This document shows positions 26,421-60,838 of a stretch of 64,000 nt of DNA, piece by piece. Numbering within the stretch: position 1 is the first letter of the stretch; each line of letters starts with the position of its first letter. The notes under the pieces were generated by a model, which ran no database searches, was not told the DNA's origin, and saw nothing but the letters and a program-made list of their open reading frames with translations. Position numbers and translations under genes: made by a program. The stretch comes from Schmidtea polychroa (Eukaryota), in assembly GCA_044892525.1 (NCBI GenBank), contig CM097885.1:25732001-25796000 (forward strand). Direction: 5' to 3'.

Positions 26421-27034
26421 GTTATAGTTACTAAAAATCAAAATCTAAATCAAATATTGATTTAGGATTTTCCCCCCATAGCTGAATTTAGAATCAACCC
26501 CGCTGATCCAATAGGCAGGATCGAAATTCTTAAAAAGTTATTTTTAGTAACACCCCCCCCTAGAAAAATGTTAGTATTATCTAGGTTAATTAGGGATATG
26601 GGTGGGGATACATTATCCAAGGAGGTAAAATACCCCGTTAAATTGTTGATGAATCGTGAGTAAATGATTCTATTTTCCTGAAAATGAAATTACTGCCATA
26701 ATAAAACTAAAGATTTTTGTTTTTATTACTATACTTTTAATAACCGACCAGTGTCAGACCACTGCGAACACCAAATTGTAATTACCCACGAGGAGTCGCA
26801 TGACGATCTCTCAGATTTGAGCTTCTACATCTCTAGCCAGGAGAAATTGTCATTAATCTTTCCTAAAATGGGGATACACTATAAATAAATAAATTACCTA
26901 AATTCATAAAAGGTCGTTGTACCACTTATAACGAGTACAACAGTAGGTAGATAGTAGCCCACTGCAACAATTGGGGGGGCACCCCCCCCCCCTGTTGCAA
27001 CTTTTTTTTTGTTGCAACTTTTGATTACGCAATT

Positions 27035-27960
27035 TTTCAGACTATAGTGAGGGGGTCTCGATGGTCCTGGGATTTTCAATACAAAAAAATTTTTTCTATA
27101 CAAAAACGATGGTCCTGGGATTTTCAATACAAAAAAAATTTTTCAATACAAAAATCCGACTACTACTAAAAAAGCCAAGGAATTTTCAGACTATAGTGAG
27201 GGGGTCTCGATGGTCCTGGGATTTTCAATACAAAAAAAAAATTTTCAATACAAAAATCCGACTACCACTAAAAAAGCATGGTAATTTAAGGTCTCAGGAT
27301 ATTTTCAATACAAAAGCTGGTCTACACTAAAAAAGCATGGTAATTTAAGGTCTCAGGATATTTTCAATACAAAAAGCTGGTCTACACTAAAAAAAAAGCC
27401 AAGGATTTTTCAGACTATAGTGAGGTGAGTCTCCTTGGTCCTGAGAAAAAGGTGGTCTACACTAAAAAACGTGGTAAATTTATCAATTAAAGTAAATATT
27501 GGTCCAAATTTTAAAAATTAAATTACAGTAAATTATGGCTCAAATTTTTAAATTACAGTAAATAATGGTCCAAAAATTTGAATTACAGTAAATTATGGGT
27601 CTAAAAAATTAAATTACAGTAAATAATGGTCAAAATTTTTGAATTACAGTAAATTATGGTACTAAAAAATTAAATTAAAAGTAAATTATGGTTTTAAAAA
27701 TTAAATTAAAGTAAATTATGGCCAAAATTTTTGAATTACAGTAAATTAAGGTTCTAAATTTTAAATTAAAGTAAATTAAGGTTCTAAAAAATTAAAATAA
27801 AGTAAATTAAGGTCCAAATTTTTAAATTAACTAATCAATGGTAAAAATTTAAATTAAAGTTAAATAAGTAAATTAAAGTAATAATTTTTAAATTAAGTAA
27901 TCAATGGTAAAAAATTTTAAATAAGTAAATTAAAGTAAATTAAAGTAAGATTTTAAAATT
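27035..27960. repeat. Subterminal tandem repeats of the outer element (mirrored at about 59240-60290)
   Basis: Repeated ttttcagactatagtgagg...ggtcctgggattttcaatacaaaa units, then roughly 30-bp aattacagtaaattatgg units. Confidence 0.85.
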
Positions 27961-28189
27961 TAATTACAAAATAATAGAAGGTGTTTGAGAATTGAAATTT
28001 TTTAATGAAAATTTTTATGAAATAATTTTTAAGTAATTTTAAATGGAAATTTTTTTGGAATAATTTTTTAAGTAATTTTTAATGGAAATTTTTATGAAAT
28101 ATTTTTCAATGATAATTTTAGATGGAAATTTTTAAGATAATTTTTAATGAAAATTTTTATGAAATATTTTTCAAAGACAAATTTTAATA

Positions 28190-29650
28190 ATAATTCAACA
28201 ACAAACCAACAACTTAGTACCAACAACCAGTAACTTACGAACATGTATTAACAACCAGATACCTACAACTAGTTACTAACAACTAGTTACATGATACTAA
28301 GTAAATACAACCACCTAACAAGTACTAACAACCAAAAACAAGCAACCAACCAGGTACCAGTTACCAACTACTAAGTACCTACAACCAACTAGTTACCTGA
28401 TACCAAGTACTTACAACTAAATACTAACAACCAGTTACCTGATACCTAGTACTTACAACTAGTTACTAACAACCAGTTACTAAGTACCTTCAACCAACTA
28501 TGTACTCACAACCAACAACAACCAAGTACTAAGCATTATCAACCAAGTACCTACAACCAACAACAACCAAGTACTAAGCACTGTCAACTAAATACCAAAC
28601 ACTTACAACCTACAACTAGTTACTAACAACCAGTTACCTGATACCAAGTACATACAACCAAAACAACCAGCTATCAACCAGATACCAACTACTAAGTACC
28701 TACAACCAACTACCAAGTACTTACAACCAACAACAACCAGATACCTACAACTAGATACTAACAACTAGTTACCTGATACCAACTACTAACAACCACCTAC
28801 CAAGTACATACAACTAGTTACTAACAACCAGTTACTAAGTACCGTCAACCAACTATGTACTCACAACCAACAACAACCAAGTACTAAGCACTGTCAACTA
28901 AATACCAAACACTTACAACCTACAACTAGTTACTAACAACCAGTTACCTGTTACCAAGTACATACAACCAAAACAACCAGCTAACAACTAGGTACCAAGT
29001 ACTAACAACTAGCTACCACCTACCAACTACTAACAACCAAGTACAAGATACCTAGTACTATCAACCAGCTACTAAGCACCTACAACCACCTACCCATTAA
29101 CTAGCTACAACCAGCTAACTAGGTACTAGATACCAAGTACTAAGCATTATTAACCAACTAAATACTAAGTACTAACAACCAACCAACTAGGTACCAGATA
29201 CCGAGTACTCACAACCAACAACAACCAGGTACTAAGCATTATCAACCAACTACTAAGTACTTACAACCAACTAGCTACCACCTACCAAGTACTAACAACC
29301 AGTTACCTGATACCAAGTACTAACAACCCACAACAATTAGCTAACAACTAACTACCACCTACCAAGTACCTACAACTAGATACTAACAACCAGTTACCCA
29401 TTAACTAGCTACAACCAGCACTCAACTAGCTACCAACTACCAAGTACTAACAACCAACTAGCTACCACCTACCAAGTACTAACAACCAGTTACCAACTAC
29501 TAAGCATTAATTACCTACAACTAGTTACTAACAACTAGATACCAAGTACATACAACCAACAACTAAGCATTATCAACCAAGTACTAACAACCAAGTAACT
29601 TACCTAGTAATAAGCACTGTCAACTAGATACCAAACACTTACAACCAGAT
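28190..29650. repeat. Complex TACAAC/TACTAAC/TACCAAG-rich satellite (mirrored at 39930-40826 and 58497-59010)
   Basis: Shuffled short units such as agtacttacaaccaac, tactaacaaccagttac and gataccaagtac. Confidence 0.9.
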
Positions 29651-57692: not shown

Positions 57693-57699
57693 CAATGAA

Positions 57700-58496
57700 A
57701 TAATAATAATAATAATATTAATAATATTAATATTAATAATAATAATAATAATAATAATAATAATAATAATAATAATAATAATAATAATAATAATAATAAT
57801 AATATTAATAATAATAATAATAATAATAATAATAATAATAATAATAATAATAATAATAATAATAATAATAATAATAATATTAATAATAATAATAATAATA
57901 ATAATAATAATAATAATAAGATATATGGCTCATTCGAAAGGTCTTGGATTGAGCTTTAAAATGAGCTATCGATTATTAATTTTCGTTGGCGGGAACTTTG
58001 AAAAATTTAAAAATAAAATAATAATATTTTTAAAAATAATAATAAAAATAATAATATTTTTAAAAATAATAATATGACCTTGATGAGTCATCGCGATGAC
58101 TCATATGACCTTGGGAATGACCTTGGATGAGTCATGTGACCTTGAAAATGACCTTGATGAGTCATAGGATGACTCAGGTGACCTTGGAAATGACCTTGAA
58201 AATTTTGATGAGCCATCGGATGAGTCATATGACCCTGAGAATGACCTTGATGAGTCATAGGATGAGTCATGGTCTTTGTTTAAATGACCTTGAAAGATTT
58301 TATGAGTCATAGGATGACTCATGGTCTTTGTTTCAATGACCTTGATGAGTCATATGTCTTTGTTTAAATTTGACCTTGAAAAAAAAATGTACTTTTAGAC
58401 TTAGAATATTTTTGAAAATCTTACCGACGGGGGGGAGGGGGAGGGGGGGTACTGTGCTAGCGGTGCCCTGTGCCAGCGGTGCCCAATCCATCTACT
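57700..58496 (-). repeat. Right TIR of the Maverick
   Basis: Reverse complement of the left TIR with a shorter motif array (about 58075-58380). Confidence 0.92.
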
Positions 58497-60838
58497 GTTG
58501 TAGGTACTTAGTAGTTGGTATCTGGTTGATAGCTGGTTGTTTTGGTTGTATGTACTTGGTATCAGGTAACTGGTTGTTAGTAACTAGTTGTAGGTTGTAA
58601 GTGTTTGGTATTTAGTTGACAGTGCTTAGTACTTGGTTGTTGTTGGTTGTAGGTACTTGGTTGATAATGCTTAGTACTTGGTTGTTGTTGGTTGTGAGTA
58701 CATAGTTGGTTGAAGGTACTTAGTAACTGGTTGTTAGTAACTAGTTGTAAGTACTAGGTATCAGGTAACTGGTTGTTAGTATTTAGTTGTAAGTACTTGG
58801 TATCAGGTAACTAGTTGGTTGTAGGTACTTAGTAGTTGGTAACTGGTACCTGGTTGGTTGCTTGTTTTTGGTTGTTAGTACTTGTTAGGTGGTTGTATTT
58901 ACTTAGTATCATGTAACTAGTTGTTAGTAACTAGTTGTAGGTATCTGGTTGTTAATACATGTTCGTAAGTTACTGGTTGTTGGTACTAAGTTGTTGGTTT
59001 GTTGTTGAATTATTATTAAAATTTGTCTTTGAAATATATTTCATAAAAATTTTCATTAAAAATTATCTTAAAAATTTCCATCTAAAATTATCATTGAAAA
59101 ATATTTCATAAAAATTTCCATTAAAAATTACTTAAAAAATTATTCCAAAAAAATTTCCATTAAAAATTACTTAAAAATTATTTCATAAAAATTTTCATTA
59201 AAAAATTTCAATTCTCAAACACCTTCTATTATTTTGTAATTAAATTTTAAAATCTTACTTTAATTTACTTTAATTTACTTATTTAAAATTTTTTACCATT
59301 GATTACTTAATTTAAAAATTATTACTTTAATTTACTTATTTAACTTTAATTTAAATTTTTACCATTGATTAGTTAATTTAAAAATTTGGACCTTAATTTA
59401 CTTTATTTTAATTTTTTAGAACCTTAATTTACTTTAATTTAAAATTTAGAACCTTAATTTACTGTAATTCAAAAATTTTGGCCATAATTTACTTTAATTT
59501 AAATTTTTTGGACCATAATTTACTTTAATTTAATTTTTAGAACCATAATTTACTTTTAATTTAATTTTTTAGGACCATAATTTACTGTAATTCAAAAATT
59601 TTGACCATAATTTACTGTAATTTAATTTTTTAGACCCATAATTTACTGTAATTCAAATTTTTGGACCATTATTTACTGTAATTTAAAAATTTGAGCCATA
59701 ATTTACTGTAATTTAATTTTTAAAATTTGGACCATTATTTACTTTAATTGATAAATTTACCACGTTTTTTAGTGTAGACCACCTTTTTCTCAGGACCAAG
59801 GAGACTCACCTCACTATAGTCTGAAAAATCCTTGGCTTTTTTAGTGTAGACCATCTTTTTGTATTGAAGTTCTCAGGACCAAGGAGACTCACCTCACTAT
59901 AGTCTGAAAAATCCTTGGCTTTTTTTTTAGTGTAGACCAGCTTTTTGTATTGAAAATATCCTGAGACCTTAAATTACCATGCTTTTTTAGTGTAGACCAG
60001 CTTTTGTATTGAAAATATCCTGAGACCTTAAATTACCATGCTTTTTTAGTGGTAGTCGGATTTTTGTATTGAAAATTTTTTTTTTGTATTGAAAATCCCA
60101 GGACCATCGAGACCCCCTCACTATAGTCTGAAAATTCCTTGGCTTTTTTAGTAGTAGTCGGATTTTTGTATTGAAAAATTTTTTTTGTATTGAAAATCCC
60201 AGGACCATCGTTTTTGTATAGAAAAAATTTTTTTGTATTGAAAATCCCAGGACCATCGAGACCCCCTCACTATAGTCTGAAAAATTGCGTAATCAAAAGT
60301 TGCAACAAAAAAAAAGTTGCAACAGGGGGGGGGGTGCCCCCCCAATTGTTGCAGTGGGCTACTATCTACCTACTTACAACCAAGGGAGGAGTAAGTGAGC
60401 AAGAAATTGAGCTCGTCACTAATACCCGCATTTAGTGGTAATTACTCCAATTTTTCGGAAATACCTATAAAAATTAAGTTATAAAATTTTAAATTACCAA
60501 CTAGTGGTAAATGAAATATTAATGTTAAAAATAGTTATTTAAAACAAAAATGACCTTTGGGGAATTATCGGTCAGGATATAGAATTTCTAGCGTTAATAC
60601 TCAATGTTGTTAAAATTCTTCTTTAATTTATTAATTAAAAGGGTAAGTTAGTCAATGTAAATTTGGAATTTTGAGTCAAAATTGCTTGCATTAATTATAG
60701 TAAATTTGATAATTAAATTACGACCTATCTTGAATATGAAAAAGTTGCATGTTTTTATCATCGCTTCATTTGATGAGTCACACTGAACTTAAGATTCATC
60801 TCCGTCTGTACAAGGGTCTTGATTTTTACATTGCAGGA

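Follow-up and report, generated by a model that had tools for sequence, protein, structure and literature searches.

In intact vertebrate Mavericks, also known as Polintons, the element measures 12.7-24.6 kb (mean 16,862 +/- 1,678 bp), carries terminal repeats of 46-1,447 bp, is flanked by 6-bp target duplications and ends in AGT or AG repeats; the end motifs have been tied to jump-back priming, and a size constraint near 17 kb has been suggested (PMC8097293). Insect polintons may have terminal repeats of up to about 2 kb with genes inside them (10.1101/2025.02.07.637071). Among foldback transposons the arms of Galileo and Tetris reach 1.3 and 1.7 kb, respectively (PMC3573991; PMC4079207), and the target duplications of Tetris are 8-10 bp long (PMC4079207). 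Here we describe a gene-less palindromic element with arms of more than 7 kb, interrupted by a coding Maverick, in a 64,000-nucleotide stretch of the Schmidtea polychroa genome (assembly GCA_044892525.1, contig CM097885.1, positions 25,732,001 to 25,796,000, forward strand). This whole stretch is hereafter called the window, the palindrome is called the outer element and the Maverick within it the nested element.

Kapitonov and Jurka reportedly described non-autonomous Polintons such as Polinton-1N1_DR in 2006, and that name is on record (PMC9341505). One published Maverick screen required matches to both integrase and polymerase (PMC8097293), and another accepted arms of at most 2.5 kb with a loop of at least 15 kb (10.1101/2023.10.06.561300). 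Gene-less elements with giant arms are therefore easily missed. In the open literature searched, mostly by listings and with Repbase, subscription papers and preprint supplements outside its scope, we found neither a giant palindromic gene-less Maverick derivative nor a reported Maverick target preference, and no such element appears in the accessible parts of PMC6431247, 10.1101/2023.10.06.561300, 10.1101/2022.07.12.499685, PMC11662393, PMC5499653 or PMC4028283.

Results

Architecture of the outer element

When the window was compared with itself, three long inverted matches emerged, which pair positions 26942-34201 with 35135-60374 and are broken by the nested element at 40827-58496. The outer element spans 26942-60374 minus this insertion, and its net length is 15,757 bp, or 89% of the 17,670 bp of the nested element. 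The left arm (26942-34201, plus strand) is 7,260 bp long and starts with AGTAG; the right arm is 7,564 bp long, lies on the minus strand and consists of an inner part (35135-40826) and an outer part (58503-60374) that ends in CTACT. Between the arms lies a spacer of 933 bp (34202-35134), and the inverted repeat makes up 94% of the element. The ends read AGTAGGTAGATAG (from 26942) and the reverse complement of this sequence (up to 60374), with no further match in the window; their AGTAG/CTACT bases are five of the six of an (AGT)2 motif, and the same five as in the nested element. Comparison of the ends also revealed TACAAC on either side (26936-26941 and 60375-60380, both plus strand), a perfect 6-bp target duplication exactly at the edge of the inverted repeat. 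A 6-bp flank match has a probability of about 6e-4 by chance, and apart from the shared 6-mer the host DNA differs between the two flanks. A preliminary description, made from the letters alone, had proposed a palindrome of about 15.8 kb with arms of about 7.2 kb, AGTAG...CTACT ends, a 6-bp target duplication, a spacer below 1 kb and a length close to that of the 17.7-kb autonomous element, all of which agrees with these measurements.

The outer element has the form of a foldback transposon, with long inverted arms that contain tandem repeats and enclose a short middle. Tandem repeats occupy 3,187 of the 7,260 bp of the arm (about 44%, or 48% if a degenerate satellite is counted in). The terminus (26942-27030, plus strand) consists of a G/C tract with two short hairpins and folds as a single strand (z -3.5), whereas the end of the nested element does not (z +2.7). 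It is followed on the same strand by subterminal tandem arrays with 48-, 59-, 30/61- and 13/65-bp units (27032-28190), by the degenerate, strand-skewed satellite (28195-29650), which holds 24 copies of TACAAC and eight of TACAACCAA and in whose mirror copy the nested element sits, and by an AAT microsatellite (29850-29973), of which the right arm has a shorter version. An old tandem repeat with a unit of about 295 bp and 69% likeness between units makes up the spacer. The right flank is GC-richer and contains two open reading frames (ORFs) without Pfam match (60749-61204 and 61609-61950, plus strand); it is possibly another repeat into which the outer element was inserted.

Absence of genes

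Among ORFs of at least 80 amino acids starting with ATG, the outer element contains a frame of 89 residues, located in the subterminal repeats, and the mirror copy of this frame, and no others. None of the 15 proteins of the nested element matched it, and neither did polymerase and capsid profiles run against its six frames, while the same polymerase profile, as a positive control, detected a decayed gene in the 5' flank with an expectation value (E) of 7e-50. No Rfam family matched the outer element, and the five matches obtained lie far below the gathering score, all in the repeats of the nested element. A faint tblastn match between one of 243 proteins and a tandem array (E 7e-4 and 3e-3) was not repeated by profile search and was rejected as due to chance. 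The outer element thus lacks the protein-primed polymerase, integrase, capsid protein, ATPase and protease of an autonomous Maverick/Polinton and is not one; the absence of genes noted in the preliminary description was borne out by the ORF list, the protein comparison and the profile search with its working control.

A variable family of related copies

Relatives of the element were sought in contig data from six sequencing runs of one organism, generated in two studies and available only as assembled contigs; one of the runs, X1, may be the source sample. The six runs contain between 45 and 86% of the words sampled from flank, arm and spacer, and small shares of these words are also present in metagenomes and in organisms B and C. 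No RNA data set was listed among those containing the sequence; run X8, which is RNA by guess only and has a depth resembling the DNA pattern, was not used. Contigs aligning to 29985-35140, a 5.2-kb segment of arm and spacer, numbered 108,358 in X1, 16,435 in X2 and 17,104 in X5, most of them 90-99% alike. The spacer itself is multi-copy, with up to 45 contigs per variant row and an exact 154-bp contig at a depth of 1,033 in X2. Another X2 contig (depth 3,892, with 31 letters on its short side) runs from the spacer end into an opposite-strand arm with a different 26-bp unit, which is the fold-back turn of other copies. The arm and the spacer are highly repeated and variable, and the outer element is one of many related copies. 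A search for such copies had been proposed in the preliminary description, and pieces of arm and spacer were recovered in thousands of variant contigs from both studies.

The median summed depth of the arm exceeded that of the spacer 5.1-, 9.4- and 15.6-fold in three runs, where a uniform family would give 2-fold, and it declines from about 33,770, inside the arm; summed contig depth is not the same as copy number. Most arm-bearing copies would therefore have another or a more diverged centre.

Comparison of the two arms

The arms differ by nine insertions or deletions of 15-193 bp, mostly of whole repeat units. Outside a divergent tract at 32450-33300 we counted 12 mismatches in 6,184 positions (6/1,764, 3/1,060, 2/2,470 and 1/890 for the separate pieces, the AAT run at 29850-29979 being excluded), whereas the tract itself has 26 mismatches in 815 aligned bases (3.2%) in addition to length differences. 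The arms had been described as near-identical and different mostly in the number of tandem units, and this is true of the nine length differences, but not of the divergent tract. The patchy distribution of divergence implies that recombination or conversion acts on the arms.

Outside the tract the arms are about 99.8% alike, while the family copies are several percent away. The same pattern is seen at single positions. Among the 286 variant rows 40 were listed, and the 35 that fall in the arm were used, the five spacer rows being dropped. At 24 of these 35 places the letter of the window was the minority letter in each of the three runs; in 20 of these 24 cases (four of seven at the strictest cut) the two arms agree in carrying it, and three of the four exceptions fall in the divergent tract. 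Because the arms are far more like each other than like the family copies, they have, as judged from these comparisons, been copied from each other, and such arm-to-arm copying would fit a fold-back step in replication.

Links between the outer element and Mavericks

The termini of the outer and the nested element have AGTAG and a GGGCACC/poly-C tract in common, but the sequences diverge after AGTAG, and no long DNA match was found between the two elements. As the preliminary description had maintained, the outer element is therefore no simple deletion product of the nested one.

The two elements nevertheless share a motif of 69-79 bp with 85-90% likeness, of which the outer element has four copies and the nested one a single copy. 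The first copy (30427-30495, plus strand; 85.5% over 69 bp) leads into a 15-bp tandem array, the second (33472-33550, minus strand) is 89.9% alike over 79 bp, and the cores of the mirror copies lie at 35786-35809 (plus) and 39167-39190 (minus). The single nested copy (41864-41942, plus strand) is found just inside the left terminal repeat. The motif core has five matches in the window, which are these four and one, none in the host flanks and none in 100 shuffled sequences. Depth peaks 4-5 fold over one copy of the motif, and in 82 contigs of X1 the motif is followed by an AAT run, which is also the arrangement of the nested element. Folding of the motif is unremarkable (z -0.96, 0.68 and -0.13), and its pattern was found in no viral and no metagenome contigs, blanks that say little for collections in which planarians are hardly covered. 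The packaging domain of adenovirus is located at one end of the genome, and the motif of the nested element is likewise at one end, a likeness of position only.

A further link is the insertion site, which reads TACAACCAA, nine bases, for both elements; the empirical probability of such a shared target is about 3e-4 with strand and offset allowed for. The heptamer TACAACC does not occur in 30.5 kb of other host flank, as against 15 occurrences in the 1,456-bp arm satellite, where the 9-mer is not the commonest word. An autonomous element with the terminus of the outer element was found neither in viral nor in metagenome contigs, a result of little weight given the same sparse coverage of planarians.

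The nested Maverick

The nested element (40827-58496, plus strand, 17,670 bp) has AGTAGATGG and its reverse complement at its ends and is flanked by GTTGTA, a target duplication of 6 bp (40821-40826 and 58497-58502, plus strand). Its terminal inverted repeats, themselves rich in repeats, measure about 0.8-1 kb, and it interrupts the right arm of the outer element. Its predicted genes, all on the plus strand, encode an A32-like packaging ATPase (45479-46105; Pox_A32, E 3.6e-7), an integrase with chromodomain (46719-47816; rve, E 1.1e-5, below the curated cut-off), a double jelly-roll major capsid protein of 407 residues (49172-50395; predicted structure and Foldseek), an adenovirus-type protease (50340-50807; Peptidase_C5, E 4.6e-6) and a protein-primed family B polymerase with an open frame of 1,130 residues (53894-57286; relatives with PF03175). 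The capsid model has a predicted local distance difference test score of 90.7 and resembles an iridovirus capsid protein (Foldseek E 5.7e-17) as well as those of PBCV-1, Sputnik and mavirus. The polymerase ORF itself gave no match to PF03175 in the Pfam search and none to solved structures. With this predicted gene set, its terminal repeats and its 6-bp duplication the element is classified as a Maverick.

Like the outer arms, the terminal repeats (41130-41845 and 57699-58384) are set apart by tandem units, here a block of about 360 bp, and the element holds seven long AAT/ATT-type runs, one of which (47108-47185) lies within the integrase frame. It also contains a 145-residue ORF resembling TATA-binding protein (44942-45379, minus strand; Pfam TBP, E 5.7e-14) and, in its left accessory region, a 103-residue ORF with a weak Bcl-2 match (42571-42882, plus; E 0.01, below the cut-off) and a 166-residue ORF with a hydrophobic start (41965-42465, minus).

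Other features of the window

A second Maverick polymerase gene (6563-10169, minus strand) is decayed and frameshifted, and four longer pieces of it are 37-55% identical to the nested polymerase; terminal repeats were looked for at this locus and none were found. The window further contains a small foldback element (737-1117) with 159-bp arms, 97% complementary, and a 63-bp middle, and a 301-residue ORF for a Pogo/CENP-B-type transposase that covers part of the DDE_1 profile (13096-14001, minus strand). Two major facilitator transporters are each encoded by a single ORF on the plus strand (1240-2715 and 18566-20011), the latter being 78% identical to Schmidtea mediterranea Slc43a-5.

Discussion

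The outer element is probably a non-autonomous foldback satellite that is copied and inserted in trans by a Maverick helper. The protein-primed polymerase of the helper would begin synthesis from one or the other AGTAG end of a free linear molecule, and the strand that it displaces would pair with itself over about 7 kb, forming a nearly complete duplex closed by a loop of 0.9 kb. Such folding back would remake an origin and let one arm be copied from the other, whereupon the helper integrase would insert the element, probably favouring sites resembling TACAACCAA. The preliminary description had suggested a snap-back satellite replicated by the family B polymerase of a helper; the multi-copy, gene-less nature of the element and its Maverick-type ends and footprint support this suggestion, and arm copying is consistent with fold-back, but a helper with these ends was not found in viral or metagenome contigs. 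Padding with repeats to a size fit for packaging, also suggested there, may play a part, with about 44-48% of an arm in tandem repeats and a length 89% of that of the nested Maverick. The nested Maverick is probably not the helper, its end being different beyond the first five bases, but some cross-use is possible given the motif and target that both elements have. A more far-reaching version, which we regard as doubtful, would make the element a true satellite of an animal polintovirus, i.e. a hairpin genome devoid of genes that outpaces its helper in replication by means of two identical origins, carries four copies of the helper's packaging or control signal, is kept near capsid size by repeats and draws helper Mavericks into its arrays of integrase targets.

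Several points weigh against the proposed helper-dependent satellite. The sixth terminal base departs from both the (AGT)2 and the (AG)3 motif in either element, the target match comprises two insertions only and was noticed after the fact, and no autonomous element with the outer ends emerged from the viral or metagenome collections. Most arm-bearing copies probably have another or a more diverged centre, which is possibly coding. The likeness of the arms could also stem from recent formation of the palindrome or from conversion after insertion in the chromosome, and the evidence from variants and joints comes from the 40 variant rows (out of 286) and the 15 joints (out of 532) that were listed.

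The arms might instead belong, as giant terminal repeats, to a family of coding Mavericks, of which this copy would be a centre-deleted or copy-back derivative and not a member of a self-standing gene-less lineage. The 5- to 16-fold excess of arm over spacer depth and its drop inside the arm speak for such an origin, and there are precedents in insect polintons with gene-bearing terminal repeats of about 2 kb, in polintons that lack polB yet are still mobile (10.1101/2025.02.07.637071), and in Galileo, whose repeats lengthen by taking in inner sequence, most of all in non-autonomous copies (PMC3573991). However, the spacer too is multi-copy in the contig data, by its variant rows as well as by its exact contig in X2, neither arm nor spacer holds a coding remnant, and among the loose ends listed near the inner edge of the arm, which are short and a minority of the total, none is identifiable as coding; we consider this origin unlikely.

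The patchy 3.2% tract, a mark of recombination or conversion, would also suit an ordinary foldback transposon moved by cut-and-paste only, whether the mover is a Maverick integrase or some other transposase, and with arms kept alike by chromosomal conversion and no polymerase step. Yet the arms of known foldback elements extend only to 1.3-1.7 kb and Tetris duplicates 8-10 bp, while a link to Mavericks is indicated by the ends, the 6-bp duplication, the internal motif and the target site alike, and an element of this kind seems improbable. Long palindromes are a known artefact of sequencing reads, and no listed contig spans the whole of 29985-35140, as might be the case for a fold-back chimera of sequencing or assembly. 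Such a chimera is very hard to reconcile with arms that differ by nine insertions or deletions and a cluster of divergent sites, with a 17.7-kb insertion that has its own duplication and is present in one arm only, and with different host DNA next to the shared 6-mer at each end; because of these features we do not regard the outer element as a chimera, and the turn from spacer to arm is present in another sample as well.

The copying, packaging and target choice of Mavericks are still mostly inferred. If the outer element is a satellite moved by a Maverick helper, its gene-less family is a natural filter for Maverick cis signals, namely the five terminal bases, the motif of about 80 bp and possibly the 9-base target, and the divergence between arms as compared with that between copies, taken over hundreds of copies, could test the fold-back replication model from sequence alone. 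An expansion of Mavericks has been reported for Dugesia planarians in a preprint whose main text, in the part available, mentions neither palindromes nor inverted repeats, its supplements being outside our scope (10.64898/2025.12.11.693146). Elements such as the one described here may explain part of that expansion.

The outer element agrees with Mavericks/Polintons in its AGT-type ends, its 6-bp duplication and a length near the vertebrate mean, but it is gene-less and has arms of 7.3-7.6 kb instead of 46-1,447 bp (PMC8097293). With Polinton-1N1_DR, known here by name only, it shares a presumed reliance on a helper Polinton. Galileo and Tetris likewise have long arms with tandem repeats that vary in unit number, are non-autonomous and have arms that grow by taking in inner sequence; in contrast, their movers are P-element or Mutator-type transposases and their ends and duplication length are different (PMC3573991; PMC4079207), the 6-bp duplication of the outer element standing against 8-10 bp in Tetris. 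Snapback defective genomes of adeno-associated virus also have one end duplicated as a mirror image and need a helper, but they are transient particles with pieces of viral genes, whereas the outer element is integrated, inherited, diversified and gene-less (PMC8235507). Transpovirons are similarly linear and Polinton-derived, with inverted ends and no capsid genes, yet they measure about 7 kb, encode a helicase-polymerase fusion and ride in giant viruses (PMC5499653). As a foldback form the outer element exceeds all those that we found described several times in size, and what it adds to these systems are arms that appear to have been copied from each other, a motif that is present in four copies and recurs in the nested Maverick, and a 9-base target common to both elements.

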